A stretch of 64,000 nucleotides of DNA from Octopus vulgaris (Eukaryota), in contig OX597833.1 in assembly GCA_951406725.2 (NCBI GenBank), positions 70,432,001 to 70,496,000 on the forward strand, read 5' to 3'. Shown here piece by piece: positions 1,229 to 53,240 of this stretch. The notes beneath the pieces are model-generated. The model ran no database searches, was not told the DNA's origin, and saw only the letters and a list, made by a program, of their open reading frames with translations. The position numbers and the translations under genes are program-made. Position 1 is the first letter of the stretch, and each line of letters begins with the position of its first letter.

Positions 1229-1299
<71 letters not shown>

Positions 1300-1497
1300 A
1301 AGATAGATACACTTATGTATGGACTATGTATGTATATATGTATAGTTTGCAAAGAACAATGGGAGAAAAGTACTCTCTACAAGGAGTAGAGTATAGTTTC
1401 ATTAACTGAGTCATTAGACATAGCTCATTTAGGAAGAAAAAGAGCCTGGGGGAATTGATGGTAATGTGTGTCAGCAAAATCTTTTACAGTGTTATGT

Positions 1498-1536
<39 letters not shown>

Positions 1537-1596
1537 TATATATACACACATATATATATATGCGTGTATATGTATATATATACATGTGTGTGTTTG

Positions 1597-1650
<54 letters not shown>

Positions 1651-1658
<8 letters not shown>

Positions 1659-2035
1659 AAAATAGTAAAGAGTGAAAAAACGACAGAAGGCTTAAATGTT
1701 AAAAAATATATATATTTGCGTCAAAATGTCTGGAGAATATTGGAAAAAAATTTTTTTTTTTTTTTCCTTTCCTTAAAATGACATAATTTTATACTTTTTA
1801 AAGAAATACCGGTTTCGCAGTTAGCTCTTCAAATTTCTTGTGACTTAATGTTTGTCACAAGAAACATTAAGTCACAAGAAATTTGAAGAGCTAACTGCGA
1901 AACCGGTATTTCTTTAAGGAAAGGAAAAAAAAAAAAAATTTTCCAATATTCTCCAGACATTTTGACGCAAATATATATATTTTTTAAAATTTAAGCCTTC
2001 TGTCGTTTTTTCACTCTTTACTATTTTCTTATATA
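1651..2035. repeat. ~385-bp fold-back with a hammerhead-like motif on each arm
   Basis: Near-perfect inverted arms around an 8-nt loop (1854-1861); plus arm 1876-1914 aagaaat-TTGAAGA-gctaactgc-GAAA-CCGG-TA-tttctt. Confidence 0.9.
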
Positions 2036-2069
2036 TTCACCCACGTGCTTTACCAAACAAACTTTCTTA

Positions 2070-2128
<59 letters not shown>

Positions 2129-3286
2129 GACGGAAGATGGAATATACGAGAATTTATTATTAATCACTACAATTGTTTCGACGCATCTAGCATGGATCCC
2201 TCACGGGCAGATCACTCAGCAACTGATTCGGGAGCATCCAGCGGTGCAGGTGTATTTTATCGGGTGATAATCAGACACAACACGTTAAAAGTAACAGTTC
2301 TGCAATGTAACTTCCCATTTTGTAGAATGAAAAGCAGCCAGATGGAGGAAATATCTTCATTTACTTAGAAGATCAAAACTAAAATCACAGATGACAATAA
2401 AGAGAAACGAACACGCAATACAGCGAGAAAAGTATCAAAAATAACCGTTAACAAATATATATTTCTTTACTACCCACAAGGGGCTAAACACAGAGGGGAC
2501 AAACAAGGACAGACAAAGGGATTAAGTCGATTACATCGATCCCACTGCGTAACTGGTACTTAATTTATCGACCCCTAAAAGATGAAAGGCAAAGTCGACC
2601 TCGGCGGAATTTGAACCCAGAACGTAACGGCAGAAGAAATACGGCTACGCATTTCGCCCGGCGTGCTAACGTTTCTGCCAGCTCGCCGCCTTGTTAACAA
2701 ATATAGATGTATAACAAATATAGATGTATAAACGCCCTCGGACATGCTGCGTGACGCGAGTCCACTCGCTCACGCAAGCATCCGAAAAAAATGTGTTTGG
2801 CGAGGTTTTCATGTTTCGGATGTTGTCCCTTTCTCTGAGAACCAGAAAAGAACCTTTATTCTTATTGTTGCAACACACGAGTTTGTGGTCGCTTCACACA
2901 CACACACACACCCCGACCATCCCGTCGCTTCCTATGCTTGAAAAACGTGGATTGCATATCTGAACATAGAAGAATTTTAAGTAATATAAGAAGTGTTGAA
3001 TTTAATTGTGCTGTGCGAGTGTTGTAGATCGGTGGAGAGTGTTAAAGAGGATTACGATGAGATAAAACAATGTCGGTTAGGAGTGGCGTAAATAAACAAA
3101 GGGTGACAGAAGTGTCGGTGGTGGGGGAGGGGCAGAAGAAGGAAGAGAGGGAGGCGGGCGAAGGAGGAGGAGGAGGAATGAGTGGGAGTGTTGGTTGTAA
3201 AGTCAGTGGCTGGAGTGAAACAGACGAGATAATGGGAGTGATACAGAAAGAGATAGACCCAAACAGAAAGAGAAAAGAAATGCTTT

Positions 3287-3338
<52 letters not shown>

Positions 3339-3506
3339 TCGCATACGCACGTACACACATTACATATATGTGTGAGTTCATCATTAAAATTTTGTATAAA
3401 TTACTAGAGATGCGTGTAATATGAATACATACATACATACATACATACACGCACGCACACATACACGCACGTACACATACACACATACATACATACATAC
3501 ATACAC

Positions 3507-3537
<31 letters not shown>

Positions 3538-4684
3538 TACATACACACATACATACACACATACATACACACACACGCATACATACATACATACACACAT
3601 ACATACATACATACATACATATACACACACATACGTACATACATACATACATACATACATACATACATGCATACATACATGCATACACACATACATATAT
3701 GCATACATACAGAGACACACTCTATATATACACTCCACTTGTCACAGTTTCATGGTGGTGGGCATGCCGAAACTTCAAAGTCAGTGTCAGTCCTTTCTTT
3801 GTAATATTGGGACGGGGTGGAGTGTTGTGTGTGCGTGCGTGCGTGCGTGCGTGCGTGTGCGTGCGTGTGTGTGTGTGTATGCGTGTGTGTGTATGCGTGT
3901 GTGTGTGTGTGTGTGTCTGTGTGTGTGTATGCATGTGCGTGTGTGTGTCTTAGCTCAGTCATTTCAGGCAAACATGTTCTGAGCTCAAACTCCGTCGAGG
4001 TCGACTTTGCTTTTCATACATTCGGGATCGATAAAATAAAATATGCACCAGTCAAATACTGGGGTCAATATAATTTGCTAGCCCTGTCCTTCAAAATTTC
4101 AGGGCTTTTACCTCCCGGCGAATGGATTATATGCAAACATACGCGCAATATAAGGCACATACACACATGCCAACACTCACACATTGTAAAGAGACAGCGA
4201 ATTCGTTCTGCGTTTGCTTTCCGTTTATTTAATATTATTATTATTATTAGTCGAACGAGCGAGCAATATATGACAGAGCTAACTTCACGGTAGAAAGGAC
4301 TGCTTAATAGTTTTATGCTAAATATCAAAACAATGAGTATGAAAGGCACGAGAAATTGTGTGTTTCTAGCGCAAAATGGCAGCCATTTAACACTACATTC
4401 CAGATATTTAGTTAACTATCAGACAGGCAGACAGGCAAAACACAGACAGGCAGACAGACGGACAGGTAGATAGATAGAGAGAGACAGACAGATATGTATG
4501 TATATGTATATACATATCTATTTATCTCTCTATCTTTAGTCGAAGAAACTGACTCTAGGACTTAGCCTTTGTAAGCCTAGTACTTATTCTATCGGACTCT
4601 TATGCGGAACCGCTAAGTTACGGAGACGTAAACACACAAGCATCGGATGTTAAGTGATGGTAGGGAGACAAACACAGATACACA

Positions 4685-4747
<63 letters not shown>

Positions 4748-4908
4748 GACAGGCTTCTTTCAGTTTCCGTCTACCAAATCCACTCACAAAGCTTTGGTCG
4801 GCCCGAGGTTATAGTAGAAGACACTTGCCCAAGGTGCCACGCAGTGGGACTGAACCCGGAACCATGTGGTTGGTAAGCAAGCTAACTTACCACACAGCCA
4901 TTCCTGTG

Positions 4909-4967
<59 letters not shown>

Positions 4968-5139
4968 TGTCAATATGGGAAGCCTTCACTACCAATTGGT
5001 TGATAACTGATGAAGAATTAGGGACCTTCAGTGATTGTCTCCCGTCCGGTTCTACACACAGTTTACGTTATGTTGTTTGTTTAATTGCCATACATTTTTA
5101 TTTATTTATTAAGGAATGGAACGCAACACACACCGAACT

Positions 5140-5231
<92 letters not shown>

Positions 5232-5727
5232 TTGTTATATTTCGGAATATATATATATATATATAAATACACATACATAGCAAATGTAATGAACAAATAT
5301 AAGGAGAAAGACGCAGGTGGGAAAAGTTTTAATAAATATTGTATTAGTTTAATGCTCAAAAGAGAGAAGAAAAAGAGTTTTAACGTTTCGAACGTTCGTC
5401 CTTCATCAGAAGAAAATCATAGGAGAAGCGAGAAAGAGCAAAAGTGGTAAAGGAGAAAGAAAAGAAGTAAAGAGAAAATGGGAGCGGGGCTATGGGATCA
5501 AGTCGGAATGCGATTCTGTGAGAAGGGTTAAGATGAGAGAAAGGGCGAGCCGGTCGCGTAGGAGTTTTGAGATGAACATAAAGGTGTAACATTACTGGTG
5601 CATGAGGTCTCTTGGGGTGCGTGTACGGGTGTAGAGGTGTGCAAATACGGATGTAGAGCGGCGTAGGTTAGTGGGATGTGAAGTGCTGGTGCGTGTAATT
5701 TTTGCATGGGTGAATGCGCACGCGCGG

Positions 5728-5763
<36 letters not shown>

Positions 5764-5812
5764 AAAGCGTGTGCGGAAGTGGAAGAGGGTGCGAATGTGA
5801 AATAAAACTAAA

Positions 5813-5854
<42 letters not shown>

Positions 5855-8677
5855 TTTTTTACTCTTTCACTTGTTTCAGTCATTTGACTGTGGCCATGCT
5901 GGACCCCAGGACTTACCTTTGTAAGCCTAGTAATTATTTTATTGGACTCTTTTGCCGATCTGCTAAGTTACGGGGACGTAAACACACCATCATCGGTTGT
6001 CAAGCGATAGTGGAGTGGACAAACACAGACGCAAATACATACATATATACATACGACTGGCTTCTGTTCATATTTCGTCTACCAAATCCAAGGCTTTGGT
6101 CGGCCCGAGCCTATAGTAGAAGACACTAGTCCAATGTGCCATGCAGTGGGACTGAACCTGGAACCATGTGGTTGGAAAGCAGGCTACTTTCCAACCACAC
6201 AGCCACTCCTTCGCCTATAATTTATGCTAATTTCAGAGTATGGAGGGAGCTGGAGGGGGTTATTATCAAACTGGAGATCTGGCACGGACGGTTAAAAGAG
6301 GATGATCCTCGCTAAAAGATGCCCATGGTGCCGGGTGGAAGTGGTGGGGGTGTTGGTAAACCGGGTAACGGATTAGGATTAAGTCTACCAGTAAGTAAAC
6401 ACCAGTGGTATTTGAACTCAGAATGCAAAGAAGTGAAACAAATATCGTAGGATATCCCACCCGATGCCCTAACGATATCGCTAATTCAGTTTTCAGTCGC
6501 TTGCGATTCGGATTTTGGAAAAAGATTTTTCTGTAACATTTAAAATTAAGGGGCAACTCTGGTTTCTGGGATTTAAAGGCACCAGGAGAAAACCTCCAAC
6601 TGATTTCACTCAAAAGTCATAAAGACGGCCGGATACATTGGGTACTAGAGTCCAGTGTAGACTCTTCCATTTTGGGAGAAAAAAATAAGAGATGAGATAT
6701 GGTATCAACTTGAACATCTTTGATCATAAATCATAATTGTTTGATGAGAGCTGATCTGGGGTTAACGTCCCTTAAGGGCTATTTTGGCAGTTAAGATTTT
6801 ATGTCCAAAATAGTAACCACAGAATATCTACAAGTCACCGATCACACACCTTAATCCCACAGTTTATCCCCAGATCAGTCCTGGTTGAATAGGCATATAA
6901 ACACGTTCCGGCCATGGCCATCCTACCATTTCCATATACATCGACAGAATTGACTAATATATCTTTCTCTTTATTTAAACAACAAGTGGTAATTTGAGGG
7001 AAATGTGGCTGTTATTTCTTGCAGGTCGGTCGACCGCGTGAAAGGGCTTACATTTGTCAATATTATCTGTTTGTTTATGGTCACGTGTACCTTCTTGTTC
7101 ATAGTATAGCATTGTAGAGTTAATTTTAAGACAGACATTTTGTTTTTCAATGTAACCAAGCGGAATGTATTGCTCGACTTTATTCGGTTTGTACAAAAGC
7201 TTATATCATTGGTTTAAGCCCACGCTTAGAGAAGAAATTCTCACCCCTAAGTTATTCATTAAAACATATAGTGAAAGCCTTGTTCCTGTTTTCATTGACC
7301 TCAAGCAATACAAAGATTTTATATGTAAGTCTACAGTCGACATGCAACATGCTACTTTTCTTAATGAAAGCATTGTGCCCACTTTTCACTTGTTCGCTTT
7401 TGGATTCAAGAGAGAAACTCTACTCGGTCGTACGTTTGACCTACTAAAACAGTAGACTGGTCTTCCTCAAATCACTTCAACCGTCGTAGAAATAGAGAAA
7501 TGATATGCGAAATAATTTTCTTTTTAATTTCGACACAAGGCCAGCAATTTTAGGAGTAGGTGGGGGAGGGTGGTTCCCAGTATATGTCTGGTACTTGAAA
7601 GGGGCGAGAAGCAAAACTGACTTCAACGGTATTTGAACTCTGAACGAGAAGAACCGAAGGAAACGCTACTAAGCATTTTGTCCGACACTCTAATGGTTCT
7701 ATCGAAAAACAAAATTGGCCTCGAACTCAGAATGTAAAGAACCGGAAAAAAAATACTGCTAGTTATTTTGTTCGACGCACCAACGGTCCTGAAAACTCAT
7801 CGCCTCTGTTATTAGAATTAATGTAACTTCTAGATAACCCTAAAAAGATGGGATGCAACATTGGATGATGTGTGACCTAGGGCTAAACAAGGTGAATGAT
7901 TACTATACCAGCGAGCCCCATACAAAGCCTTAGCACGGGGTGGAGCCACAAAGGAGGTTCCTCTGAGCGCAGAGTATACTGGAACGAAATTCTATCATTG
8001 ATTGAAAAAAATCATTTTGTGTTTAAAACTTGTGTTCTATTTTCGCTTTAAAGAAACGATTGGACTTTTTGGCGAACCCAGTAATTTATGTAGACGAAAC
8101 TCAATTCACTCGTCCATTTGTCACTCTCACTCAATTGCTCGCTGGTTGTTAACAAGTCGGTAATTATACATCTACGTTATTTTTCTTGGTAATTATAACC
8201 GAAGTAGATCGCGCGGTTGTCACCGGTTATAAATTTTCCATACTGGATGGACTTTCTATAAATGGAACAGAAGAAAAATAAACAAACGTATTCTGCGTAA
8301 TGTTTTGAGATGCATCTCGGATCCTGTTGTGGTTATTAAATGGCAAACAGAATGCATGGGATTTTGTGTGTATGATGTTAAATGGCTGCTATTTGGATGA
8401 TAGACAATTTCTCGTCGTATCTCTCAAGCTTAATGGTTTGATATGAAATATAATGCTTTTAATCTGTCCCTCATACCGTGAATTCAAATCAATATTATAT
8501 CATATACAGACACAGTAAAGGAAGAATGAATTCTGCCTTTCGCTTACTGTCATGGCGTATATGTTTGTCTATGATGATTGTACTGACGCAACCCAGCTAT
8601 ATATATATGTGTGTGTGTGTGTGTTTATATATATATATACATATATATGCTTATATATGTTTATACATATATATGTT

Positions 8678-9444: not shown

Positions 9445-12383
9445 CTACAAATAAATAAATAAAGGATATAAATATTAAGAAATATTAAGAAAACAAAACA
9501 CAAAATAAAAATACAAAATATTCTTTTCTACTCTCGGCACAAGGCCCAAATTTTGGGGAGAGAGTTGCAGTCGATTAGATCGACCCAGAGAGGATGAAAG
9601 GTAAAGTTGGCCACGGCAGAATTTGAACTCAAAACGTAAAGGCAGACGAAATACCTATTTTTTGTTACCCACAAGGGGCTAAACATAGAGGGGACAAACA
9701 AGGACAGACAAAGGTATTAAGTTGATTACATCGACACCAGTGCGTAACTGGTACTTAATTTATTGACCCCCGGAATGATGAAAGGCAAAGTCGACCTCGG
9801 CAGAATCTGAAGTCAGAACGTAACCGCAGACGAAATACCTATTTCTTTACTACCCACGAGGGGCTAAACACAGAGGGGACAAACAAGGACAGACAAAGGG
9901 AGTAAGTTGATAACATCGACCCCAGTGCGTCACTGGTACTTAATTTATCGACCCCGAAAGGATGAAAAGCAAAGTCGACCTCGGCAGAATTTGAACTCGG
10001 AACGTAAAAACAGACGAAATGCGGCTACGCATTTCGCCCGGCGTGCTAACGATTCTGCCAGGTGGCCAACTTTTAAAGGAGTTAACATTATTAGCACTCG
10101 ACTGGTTCCGACGACAAGGGTTCCAGTTGATCCGATCAACGGACAGCTTGCTCGTTAAATTAATATGCAAGTGGCTGAGTACGCCACAGACAGGTGTGCC
10201 TTAAAGTAATACTTAGAGAGACTCAGCGTAACCCGAATCTGACAAGGATGGCCCCTTCTGAATTACAGGTACAACTCATTCTTACCAGCTGAGTGGGACT
10301 GGGGCAACGTGAAATAAAGTGTCTTGCTCAAGGACACAACGCGTCAGCAGATATCGAACTTACAACCTCGTGATCGTGAGCCAAATACTCTGAACCCCTA
10401 ATCTACACGCCTCCACAGGAATTAATGTAACGGATTATAAAACAACATGACAGCTCCCCCACCACCACCACCAGCCAAAGATTTGTGGCGTTTCGTCCCA
10501 CGGTGGAAATCAATACCGCACAAGGGAAGAGAACAAGATTCCACCCGTCGAATGGACGAAGAGGATTACTTCGAAAGGACACCCTGGTCCCTTCTTCCCC
10601 ACCTACCCACATTACATCGCCACCACCACCACCCACCCCCGGCCATATCCCCCTATGCCACAAAACAATAAGGCCCACTTCGATCAGTTCAGACGTGATG
10701 TAACATGCTTACACCCACTCACTTATATTTATACATATACATATATATATATACATATATATATATACACATATATATATACACATACATATATATACAC
10801 ATATATATATATACACATATATATATATACACATATATATATATACACATATATATATATACACATATATATATATACACATATATATATACACATATAT
10901 ATATAAACACATATATATATACACATATATATATAAACACATATATATATACACATATATATATACACATATATATATACACATATATATATACACATAT
11001 ATATATACATATATATATACATATATACATATATATATATACATATATATATATATACGCACACGTGCGCGCATACACACACACATGCACGAATATATAT
11101 ATACACATAGCTGCATGCACTCGTATATACACTTATACATATACACACACACACACTCTATTTCTGTCTCTCACACATACACACACACATACGCACACGC
11201 ACACATACTCACACATACTCACACACACGCACATAAACACACACACACACACACACAAACAGGCGCACACACACACACAAACTTACTCTATTGCGAAACC
11301 CATTACAACAGCCAGGTGAGGGATATTCTCGAAGCATCCTCTTCAAATCATTATTTATCATGGCGGTCAAGTGGGGTATTACCTCACACTTCACACACAC
11401 ACACACACTCCACCATCTCTCTCTCTCTTTCTCCTTCAATCCCTCAACTGCCAGTTTCAAGAGGGGATGCACTTTAAAGCCAAGAGCGATCCGTGTCGGC
11501 TGTTCTTCCAATCAAAACATACCCCATCACCATTCATAAAGTCTGTGGAATCTTTTAAGCGAGGATTAACATTGACGTCATTCGCTGACGTCATCCCTTA
11601 CACCCACGCACGTGCACACTTACATATACACATACATACCAACAGACGAGCATACATACATATATGCATACACACACACACAGGTATAGATACATATATG
11701 TATGCATACATGCATACATATATAATACATATATACATACATGTGTACAAACATACATGCTTGCACACGCATACGTGTATTCATTCATGCATATACGCAT
11801 ATATACATACAAACATATATGCATACACATACGTATACACATGCATACATGCATATGTGGCATCCATGCATACACACATACATACAAATATAGGGGGAAG
11901 TTCACGAAAAAAAAAAAAAAAAGACGAAGACAGTTGGTGTAGAAAACAAACAGATGTATTAGTATAGCGTTCAGGAATAGAAAAAAGTCTTTTACGTTTC
12001 GAGCCTACGCTCTTCTACAGAAAGGGACACAGAAAAAACAAGGAGAGAAAAAAATGTGTGTAGTAACTAACGATCTATCATACACACATAATACAAATAA
12101 ACATACATACATTCACGCATGCATACATACGCATACTTACATACACTCGTACATATATACATACACATACATGTTAATAACTGCCAAGGCATACCATGTG
12201 CACAACATATATACATATAGGCGTAGGAGTGGCTGTGTGGTGGTGAGTAGCTTGCTTACTAGCCACATGGTTCGGTTTCAGTCCCACTGCGTGGCACCTT
12301 GGGCAAGTGTCTTCTGCTATAGCCTCGGGCCGACCAAAGCCTTGTGAATGGATTTGGTAGACGGAAACTGAAAGAAGCCCGTC

Positions 12384-46918: not shown

Positions 46919-46969
46919 TACAGTATATGAAAGAATATGTAGTTCAGTACAACTGTATGTTATAGTCCT

Positions 46970-47354
46970 GTGGAGGCGCAATGGCCCAGTGGTCAGGGCA
47001 GCGGACTTGCGGTCATAGGATCGCGGTTTCGATTCCCAGACCGGGCGTTGTGAGTGTTTATTGAGCGAAAACACCTAAAAGCTCCACGAGGCTCCGGCAG
47101 GGGATGGTGGTGATCCCTGCTGTACTCTTTCACCACAACTTTCTCTCACTCTTACTTCCTGTTTATGTTGTGCCTGTATTTCAAGGGGCCGGCCTTGTCA
47201 CTCTCTGTGTCACGCTGAATATCCCCGAGAACTACGTTAAGGGTACACATGTCTGTGGAGTGCTCAGCCACTTACAGGTTAATTTCATGAGCAGGCTGTT
47301 CCGTTGATTCGGATCAACCGGAACCCTCGTCGTCATAATCGACGGAGTGCTTCC
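46970..47354 (+). mobile_element. tRNA-Arg-like SINE family C, full length with a 13-bp TSD (relatives 20731-21033+, 25249-25598-, 30571-30880+, 43372-43536-; same tail on 10095-10410- and 40690-41012-)
   Basis: ggaggcgcaatggcccagtgg...ggtttcgattccc head; TSD atgttatagtcct at 46957-46969 and 47355-47367. Confidence 0.9.
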
Positions 47355-47749
47355 ATGTTATAGTCCTAGAGTGCTCGACACTCTTACCTAGAGCTAAAAA
47401 TAATATTATGCGTGTGTGTGTTATCGATAAATATGCATAAACTTGTTAGCAGTTCAAATATGCTTGAAGCAAATTCGAACCCGTAAGAAAGACGTTCACT
47501 TGGTGTGTTTACAACTATTTGACTACAGTGAGAAATGTTTTCCATAACAAAATGCAGCAAATTGTTTTGTTACGGGTTCGAATTCGCCTCATGCATATTT
47601 GAACTGGTAACACGACTTAGCGCTCGCTGTCACGCCATATTTGATTGACGGTGAGCCGCCGACTTGCGTGACTAATCAGTGTATGATGACGGGCATATAA
47701 GAGAGACCCGTCTCTCGTGTCAGTTCGCAATGTCTACATTTCCGTTTTC

Positions 47750-47795
47750 TGCTGCTGAAGAGGAGATAACTACTCCGAAATGCATACATCCATCA
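47750..47795 (+). ncRNA. Minimal type I hammerhead ribozyme (first unit of tandem)
   Basis: tgctg-CTGAAGA-GGAG ataacta CTCC-GAAA-TGCATACA-TC-catca; one stem I mismatch; 257 nt upstream of the homologous copy. Confidence 0.8.
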
Positions 47796-48006
47796 ATATG
47801 GCTAGCGGGGTGCTTCGAACTGACTTGATGTACTTCCACCTACTTGTCCACTGCGAGAAAACTACACTTATCCCTGATTAGCACTTTGATTTCGTATTAT
47901 ATTACGGCCGATCCGCCAATTAGCGCAACCAATCACAGTACTCTGACTGGAATATAATGTGAGAGATCTATCTCAAGTCAGTCCTTTGCAATCCATTTCT
48001 AGTGTC

Positions 48007-48052
48007 TGATGCTGAAGAGGAGATAACTGCTCCGAAATGCATGCATCCATCA
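48007..48052 (+). ncRNA. Minimal type I hammerhead ribozyme (second unit of tandem)
   Basis: tgatg-CTGAAGA-GGAG ataactg CTCC-GAAA-TGCATGCA-TC-catca; all three stems pair; AUC triplet. Confidence 0.88.
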
Positions 48053-49203
48053 ATCTGGCTAGTGGGACACTTCGAATTGACTTGGTGTGCTTGCATCTAT
48101 TTGTCGACAGCGAGAAATTTCTCTCCATGACAAAATACAGCGAAAGGTTTTCTTACAGGTTCGAATACGCCTCGAGCATATTTGAACTAGTTTATACTTT
48201 TACACATCACTGCTTAGCGCTTCAATTTCGCAATAATTATTATGCTATCATTAGCAATAATACTGCTTAATGATCAATTCATTAAAGATATGATGTTTAC
48301 TGAAGCTACCAACAGCTGAGAAGTTATGTACTTTGGGGGAACGGACAAACGTAGAGAGAGACAGACTCACTGCTAATTAATTAATGATTTATAATTAACG
48401 AAGGGCAACGTTTTCTCTGCTCTAGTTAGCTCATTAATGTCCCTTGCAATTGTGAACCTGGCATATGTGTGTGTATGTGTGTGCGTGTGTGTGTGTGTAT
48501 GTATACATGCGTGTGTGCATACGTGTGTGAGTGTGTGTGTGCATGTATGAAGCTATTGTGTGCGTTGGTGGTGCAGTTTTCTTCTTTCCTGAAACAATAT
48601 CATTATTTTGCTTTTCACGTACGACGATGAGCTAGCAGAATTGTTGGCATGCCGGGCGAAATTCTTAGCAGTATTTCTGCCCGTCGCTACGTTCTGAGTT
48701 CAAATTCCGCCGAGGTCGACTTTGCCTTTCATCCTTTCGGGGTCGATAAACTAAGTACCAGTTACGCACTGAGGTCAATGCAATTGATTCATCCCCTCCC
48801 CCAAAATTGCTGCCCTTGAGGCAAAATTTGACCCCAAAGGCGGCAAGCTGGCAGAGTCGTTAGCACGCCGGGCGAGATGCTTAGCAGTATTTCGTCTGTC
48901 TTCGTGTTCTGAGTTCAAACTCCACTTTGCTTTTCATCCTTTCGGGGTCGATAAAGTAAGTACCCCACCCCTCCAATTTTCAACCAGCATTTCGTCCGTC
49001 TTTAAGTTCTGAGTTCAAGAACTCTCCGGGTCGATACGATGAGTACCACTGGAGTCGTCGTCGTCGACTAACCCCCTCTCCAAAAATTTCAAGCCTTGTG
49101 TCTATGATGGAAAAGATTATTATTATTAAAGACACTTCCGTTCTTTACAGAGAGAGTGAGAAAAACGACAAACGTCCCAGGACAATTCATTTCTATTTAC
49201 GTT

Positions 49204-52785: not shown

Positions 52786-53240
52786 TATGGCCAGCTGGAG
52801 GAGTGTGTCCTCCTGGGGCTAAAAACTACAGTAGCATCCACCCTTAGGGGTTAGCCATATTGAAATGGCAAAAATACGTCACGATGTGTTACCGCTACTG
52901 TATATAACTCACTTTGATATTTATCATTGTTTGATTTCACTTTTTCAATATCAGCGACAGTGGACGCTGGAAAAAGTATAAGTATTTGTGAAGGAAATCT
53001 AATTCTCGCCGACAACTATGATTGTCACACGCTGACGAGAGGTCAATACCTCGAAACTCGAGTCCGTGTGTATCATAAGTTGAAGACGGGAAGGATGACT
53101 TCCCTTTGCAAATACTGACAGGACACAGATAGTGTGTCTATGGCCAGCTGGAGGAGTGTGTCCTCCTGGGACTAAAAACTACAGTAGCATCCACCCTTAG
53201 GGGTTAGCCATATTGAAATGGCAAAAATACGTCACGATAT
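52786..53240 (+). mobile_element. Retrozyme-like / non-autonomous Penelope-type element: 353-nt monomer plus ~100-nt terminal repeat
   Basis: Direct repeats tatggccagctggaggag...aatacgtcacgat at ~52786-52884 and ~53139-53238; HHR between them; (TA)n on both flanks; another 3'-end copy at ~57433-57512. Confidence 0.75.
53026..53070 (+). ncRNA. Minimal type I hammerhead ribozyme, canonical core
   Basis: cacacg-CTGACGA-GAGG tcaata CCTC-GAAA-CTCGAG-TC-cgtgtg: stems I and II perfect, palindromic stem III, GUC triplet at 53062-53064; stem I extends imperfectly to caactatga/tcataagttg. Confidence 0.9.

Follow-up and report, generated by a model that had tools for sequence, protein, structure and literature searches.

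A decayed insertion of a dispersed 342-nt retrozyme in the octopus genome, likely written by a PLE

Non-LTR retrozymes of metazoans have been described as repeats of 220-245 nt in corals, 350-390 nt in mussels and 330/350 nt in the axolotl, and the accessible text of the same paper proposes that they are mobilised by Penelope-like elements (PLEs) (Cervera and de la Pena 2020, PMC7229834). Retrozymes of this sort are marked there by the absence of LTR, PBS and PPT, by target-site duplications that exceed 4 bp where they occur, by a stably self-paired circle, and by self-cleaving RNAs expressed as linear and circular monomers. A more recent study, devoted mainly to vertebrates, treats retrozymes as derivatives of PLE pLTRs; in its accessible sections, the basis for this is co-occurrence together with pLTR phylogeny (Li, Clavereau and Pollet 2026, 10.64898/2026.07.22.740005). 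The insertions of PLEs themselves are described, in the available part of another account, as partial tandems with an adjacent inverted, 5'-truncated copy and, often at one end, a tail of 30-40 nt (Craig et al. 2021, PMC8557442). In vitro, PLE reverse transcription uses two internal starts and extends on both strands, and the portion of the study available reports no strand preference for the starts (Frangieh et al. 2024, PMC11167929). The minimal hammerhead of PLEs has, according to the accessible text of its description, a helix II of 7-8 bp, a helix I of 4-5 bp, an extra base before helix II and no helix III (PMC4209133).

We analysed a stretch of 64,000 nucleotides of Octopus vulgaris (contig OX597833.1), referred to here as the window, in which a pair of hammerhead ribozymes lies within an element at 47437-48232. 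We conclude, with a probability that we put at roughly 0.8, that a 342-nt non-LTR retrozyme, dispersed through the genome, inserted here long ago and has since decayed, and that a PLE likely wrote the insertion with its reverse transcriptase and GIY-YIG endonuclease. The locus is one decayed copy among many and has no special design.

Anatomy of the locus

Two hammerhead cores of the type CUGAnGA...GAAA...UC start at 47755 and 48012 on the plus strand, exactly 257 nt apart. They belong to type I ribozymes at 47749-47796 and 48006-48053, whose predicted cuts fall after 47790 and after 48047, the same positions that an earlier, sequence-only reading had given for a tandem hammerhead pair. The catalytic bases are intact in both (12/12 in each), and the window holds only three stem-II-bearing cores of this type, both strands counted. 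The build at 47755 and 48012, with a 6-bp helix I, a 4-bp helix II and a short palindromic helix III, is the canonical metazoan type I and not the minimal form that the sequence-only reading had assumed. The palindromic stem III to which it had pointed is present in hammerhead 2 only, as TGCATGCA (48038-48045); in hammerhead 1 helix III is TGCATACA (47781-47788), and the palindrome is broken. Stem I contains a C-U mismatch in hammerhead 1 and has 5 bp in hammerhead 2. When folded locally, neither ribozyme is more stable than shuffled sequence (z 0.43 for hammerhead 1 and -0.80 for hammerhead 2), and a scan of the window at Rfam gathering scores gave no matches.

A motif of about 45 nt, which forms an imperfect hairpin, occurs twice in the ribozyme sense (47566-47612 and 48139-48188) and once inverted (47444-47490), as first read. 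The element as a whole is wider than the bounds of 47448-48192 originally proposed, running from 47437 to about 48232. Placed on the 342-nt consensus, it consists of an inverted arm (289-~10) followed by a direct arm that runs through 231-342, 1-268, a jump to 16, 16-342 and 1-47. The inverted arm, at 47437-47500 on the minus strand, is a 5'-truncated copy of the 3' end of the unit (consensus 289-342 and 1-~10) and stands back to back with the direct arm; it ends at stop site 1 without a tail, and may extend leftward by a few more diverged bases. The direct arm, all of it on the plus strand, begins with a partial unit 0 (47498-47609, consensus 231-342), whose terminal hairpin at 47568-47612, a copy of the ~45-nt motif, has a fold z of -4.8. 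It continues with unit 1 (47610-47860, consensus ~1-268, with about 17 nt missing near its start), which a deletion with its junction at 47860-47863 has shortened, and with a near-complete unit 2 (47863-48190, consensus 16-342), whose terminal hairpin lies at 48158-48188. The start of a further unit (48191-48232, consensus ~1-47), including a tail of about 36 nt, completes the arm and ends at stop site 2.

No target-site duplication adjoins the element ends at 47437 and 48232; one candidate, an AT-rich 12-14-mer found on both sides, was rejected because it lies 25 nt off the left end. The GC content is 0.42-0.43 in the 2-kb bins that contain the element, and comparison of eight PLE protein pieces with the window gave no match. 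Very high-copy interspersed repeats, recognised by contig depth and repeat listing, lie on both sides of the element, at 46969-47356 and 48608-49080; presumably they resemble octopus SINEs. A 184-nt tandem of a repeat related to these flanking sequences is found at 9579-10020.

The spacing of 257 nt had been taken for the repeat period. This did not hold: fifteen end-to-end monomers measure 320-379 nt and yield a consensus unit of 342 nt, and the cores of the locus stand 257 nt apart because a ~342-nt unit has lost about 89 nt (consensus 269-342 and 1-15). The lost stretch contains the terminal hairpin and the first of the two stops. In a search of low sensitivity, with two candidates only, none of the other loci spans the junction at 47860-47863. 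A contig from a DNA run of a second organism does span it, with 8 differences in 382 nt, and the junction is therefore not an assembly slip.

The dispersed family and its insertion footprint

The genome searched comprises 2.8 Gb in 227 contigs. A DNA search with the element gave 1524 candidates, the best of the 40 scored being 79% identical. Exact matches numbered 18 for the ribozyme pattern and 127 for a 20-mer of the terminal hairpin, against none for reversed controls; from the 127 matches, at 85-89% per-base identity, we estimate a family of roughly 1,400-3,300 copies. For further analysis 133 loci were collected: 30 from the DNA search, 18 from the ribozyme pattern, and 30 plus 60 from the hairpin 20-mer, less 5 duplicates. 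The 60 were taken from 70 further listed places, and 27 of the 127 matches fall outside those listed. Copies are mostly 70-90% identical to the consensus, and most are 5'-truncated and less than one unit long. Arrays reach at most about 2.5 units in the loci seen, and 10 of 14 within-locus ribozyme pairs are on the same strand. The unit carries the marks of a non-LTR retrozyme, namely a type I hammerhead per unit, a length in the 150-450 nt range, tandem and dispersed copies, GC under 50% and no coding capacity. The 342-nt repeat thus belongs to a known class of element; a search of the literature on octopus and cephalopod retrozymes, and on retrozymes with target priming, found no description of the family or of its footprint, subscription papers and supplements being thinly covered.

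The 3' ends of the copies are confined. Of 175 terminal 3' ends, 154 fall within consensus 335-60, and this includes 13 of 18 in the ribozyme-chosen set, the other sets having been picked on sequence near that end. Their distribution is bimodal, with 60 at consensus 10-19, 3 at 25-29 and 58 at 30-59; base by base, the stops lie near 11-13 and 44-48, about 36 nt apart and just downstream of the terminal hairpin. By eye, the ends are often followed by (TA)n, (GT)n or (TACA)n. The 5' ends are scattered: only 3 of 171 lie 6 nt or less from the cut site, and in 91 units the sequence continues across it. Because the cut site is read through and the 5' ends ignore it, we infer that the template was circular or uncut, and not a linear cut monomer. 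The lack of a fixed 5' end also argues against LTRs. Up- or downstream, the flanks of the 133 loci have no non-unit sequence in common except common SINEs.

Inverted arms stand back to back at 27 of the 133 loci and face to face at one, and their length varies among loci. In the 20 inverted pairs that could be classified (8 rows could not), a tail is carried by one arm only in 14, by neither in 4 and by both in 2 (p 0.03-0.06); the pairing of a tailed with a tailless arm is marginal. Flanking direct repeats of at least 13 nt accompany 3 of 25 inverted insertions, compared with 0 of 75 control pairings and 2 of 122 non-inverted insertions. A link to Penelope, originally suggested by the inverted end, is strengthened by these data: the partial tandem, the back-to-back inverted arm and the tail at one end make up the PLE layout given in the accessible text of PMC8557442.

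Within one locus of the 342-nt family, units share 76% identity; between loci the figure is 74%. Tandem pairs lie above their control in 26 of 35 cases (p 0.002), and inverted pairs in 14 of 24 (p 0.12). So small an excess within loci falls short of what is expected if the units of a locus were copied from a single circle, and it speaks against our main reading. Within-locus identity is higher in the core (136/163, or 83%) than outside it (1055/1411, or 75%; p 0.016). Units 1 and 2 of our locus stand apart in a star-like tree, in which their sisterhood is not rejected (AU p 0.059), and a split of the family into two subfamilies was not recovered, with a single diagnostic position. The divergence of units within loci may stem from a mixture of templates, or else from biases of alignment and ascertainment.

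The ribozymes are better preserved than the rest of the two units at the locus, as the sequence-only reading had noted (40/42 versus 134/191 positions, Fisher p = 3e-4); this figure is partly ascertainment, since readers notice loci with two well-kept cores. The excess extends to the genomic copies. At 87 loci chosen by the hairpin motif and not by the ribozyme, the 12 core bases are 90.5% conserved, versus 75.1% outside, and with base and CpG matching the values are 91.8% and 79.9%, a difference reached by none of 50,000 draws. Double changes in the stems number 61, compared with a shuffle mean of 31 and maximum of 45, in a statistic that ignores the relatedness of copies; one stem I pair exchanges among A-U (29), U-A (17) and G-C (6). 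The core is intact in 39 of the 83 units that span the ribozyme, as expected if source RNAs are constrained and inserted copies decay.

Folded as a circle, the 342-nt consensus gives a z of -6.1, and the 257-nt piece of the locus one of -0.15. Among the predicted helices of the circular fold, helix II alone shows covariation that beats shuffles, with long-range pairings not significant, so the value of -6.1 derives solely from the consensus. With constraints, the two ribozymes of the locus fold at -93.5 kcal/mol as a double hammerhead and at -83.8 kcal/mol as two single ones; compared with -101.3 kcal/mol when unconstrained, the costs over the free fold are 7.8 and 17.5 kcal/mol. A double-hammerhead fold is thus feasible in silico, and to this extent the earlier proposal of an excisable 257-nt RNA stands; such an RNA would not, however, be the monomer of the element, being a 342-nt unit less about 89 nt. 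Without the terminal hairpin and stop site 1, it would likely be a defective product, and its mobilisation is predicted to be unlikely. Among the listed holders of the locus sequence, none is recorded as RNA. Exact contigs at a depth of 3-4 occur in two runs presumed to be RNA, one ending at 48047, the predicted cut, and the other 12 nt beyond; we set these ends aside as evidence because the end of a contig does not reveal that of an RNA and because the two studies conflict.

A second retrozyme family, which we call family B, is unrelated to the 342-nt family and very young, and lies 5 kb away at 52786-53238 on the plus strand. Its unit is 353 nt long, with a type I hammerhead whose core is at 53032 and whose helix III is palindromic. 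The genome search gave 2748 candidates; copies are 99-100% identical, arrays of up to about 6 units lie in (TA)n, and the 3' stops are at unit positions 98 and 140-144. Sampling 15 loci from the genome search and 20 chosen as match clusters yielded 23 independent inverted insertions, 22 of which have one arm ending at ~98 and the other at 140-144; the remaining one has its ends at 98 and 118. Private variants are common to the units of one insertion in 26% of cases in tandem and 13% across arms, and in 3% between loci, a pattern consistent with a single circle, or a single uniform multimer, as the template. By analogy, family B would support the insertion mechanism that we propose for the 342-nt family. 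One of its arrays (L233, 804-2168) has units with mixed variant sets and may record more than one template; four others (L227, L228, L230 and L231) are uniform.

A proposed route of insertion and its rivals

Our preferred model begins with multimeric transcripts, which would self-cleave, probably as double hammerheads; a host ligase would circularise the resulting monomers. At an AT-rich target site, a PLE protein would then nick the two DNA strands, and reverse transcription would be primed from both DNA ends, at two internal start sites on the RNA. If the template was circular, or multimeric and uncut, the reverse transcriptase could read past the cut site. Joining of the two cDNAs at their far ends would leave a long direct arm, here of about 2.5 units and with a tail, and a short inverted arm without one. 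A later deletion of about 89 nt cut the middle unit to 257 nt.

A more specific version of this model is tentative, and we consider it rather doubtful. In this version, a dimer of the PLE protein would write retrozymes from the two ends of a single DNA cut, with a separate fixed RNA start for each subunit. In the 342-nt family, the dimer would have read chains of diverged ribozyme RNAs, either ligated hetero-multimers or the result of template jumps between circles, and the locus would be the fossil hetero-dimer of two once-functional variants. The suggestion arises because units are almost as alike between loci as within them (74% and 76%), because the core is still the less diverged part, and because units 1 and 2 are not sisters in the tree.

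PLEs that encode both a reverse transcriptase and a GIY-YIG endonuclease are present in the genome, some with open frames of 781 aa. Among 150 scored of 6136 endonuclease candidates, the PLE loci L139-L188 and L193-L211 have no match to the 342-nt profile, and in none of the 133 loci is a reverse transcriptase or GIY-YIG ORF linked to the unit. Several candidate parents were rejected. A degraded PLE (L120/L189) adjoins a copy, in which the 342-nt unit comes after the PLE's own end plus a (TA)n run, and the unit is absent from all 19 relatives examined of the L189 PLE; the pieces of endonuclease close to L085 and L039 are on the opposite strand; and a faint likeness to the 3' end of the PLE at L169 is no better than shuffles (p 0.12). 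This last element (1279-6200 of the locus C16:20834000-20842000), with its relatives L143-L168, is a young PLE that is Neptune-like in the terms of the accessible text of PMC8557442, with an open 781-aa RT-GIY-YIG frame, a CxxC linker and an upstream second open frame of 359 aa. It carries a hammerhead-like motif whose core is altered to U3/A8, found in 18 of 30 endonuclease loci, and its 3' ends meet (TA)n either with a tail or without one. By eye, a second PLE family (L176, L179, L173 and L188) shows, about 500-650 nt past the ORF, a 3' repeat bearing a hammerhead-like motif of its own, along with a pair of 3' stops.

Could the copies be only the 5'-truncated ends, or pLTR pieces, of an extinct autonomous PLE, and not an independently replicating retrozyme? 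They are mostly of sub-unit length and 5'-truncated, their tails and inversions are PLE traits, and at one locus (L120/L189) a degraded PLE RT-EN lies just upstream in the same orientation. Yet at least 15 loci join unit to unit at a constant period of ~342 nt with no ORF between, the 133 loci lack any shared non-unit flank other than common SINEs, and at L120/L189 the placement of the unit past the PLE's end and (TA)n, with its absence from all 19 relatives, speaks against descent from that element. We therefore regard this explanation as improbable. It is very improbable that the locus is a maintained, working double hammerhead and that the 257-nt RNA set free by it serves the host. Both cores are 34/36 identical to the consensus, a match equalled by only 0.4% of random unit pairs, the fold as a double hammerhead gains 10 kcal/mol over that as two singles, and the region is retained in the DNA run of the second organism. 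Against this, intact cores survive by chance in 39 of 83 ribozyme-spanning units, it was the pair of cores that drew notice to the locus, both ribozymes carry lesions in their stems, and the 257-nt circle, which is without the terminal hairpin, folds no better than shuffles; in the accessible text of 10.64898/2026.07.22.740005, moreover, cleavage in vitro is reported for only one of 9 genomic dimers. Most likely the locus is an inert fossil without host function.

We give next to no credence to a DNA element, whether a MITE or a Helitron/Helentron-like element with a hairpin and CTRR end, that carries a hammerhead by chance. The inverted ends at the locus, and CTAG or CTGG after the hairpin on direct reading, would suit such an element, but the copies end 10-48 nt past the CTRR, and at two sites; the inverted arm is present at only 27 of 133 loci and is variable in length; 5' ends are scattered; and the conserved part is an RNA catalytic core. 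Membership of the 342-nt family among Helitrons or MITEs was rejected, with no terminal inverted repeats on all copies and no 3' end at CTRR.

Comparison with known systems

Like the retrozymes of PMC7229834, as its accessible text presents them, the 342-nt family has a non-coding tandem unit of ~340 nt with one canonical type I hammerhead per unit and a short palindromic helix III, a GC content under 50%, many dispersed copies, and PLEs in the same genome. Unlike them, it is old and decayed, with arrays of at most about 2.5 units in the loci seen. The fixed ends, tails and inverted arms of the 342-nt family are not described in that text, where the word 'inverted' has no occurrence. The retrozymes of 10.64898/2026.07.22.740005 belong, in the available sections, to the same class and have the same proposed driver; the evidence here is instead an insertion footprint, and a homologous pLTR was not found among the PLE loci searched.

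With EN+ PLEs, as far as the accessible texts of PMC8557442 and PMC11167929 describe them, the family shares partial tandems, an inverted truncated copy, a tail, two start sites, AT-rich or microsatellite targets and a hammerhead in the repeat. It differs from them in that the 342-nt unit has no RT or GIY-YIG ORF, the units are joined directly, and the hammerhead is canonical and not minimal. Indeed, unlike the minimal PLE hammerhead of PMC4209133, the ribozymes of the locus have the canonical metazoan type I build set out in the available part of the same paper.

Taken together, the comparisons suggest that the 342-nt retrozyme likely behaves as a non-autonomous passenger of PLEs. Insertions that combine a PLE tail with a twin-arm footprint and that read past the ribozyme cut site bring genomic evidence to bear on the mobilisation of retrozymes by PLEs. 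The locus itself is ordinary, and family B, 5 kb away and almost uniform in its copies, is more suitable for experiments. That each target strand is paired with one RNA start site, as 22 of 23 inverted insertions of family B suggest, is a prediction open to test in the in vitro system described in the accessible text of PMC11167929.
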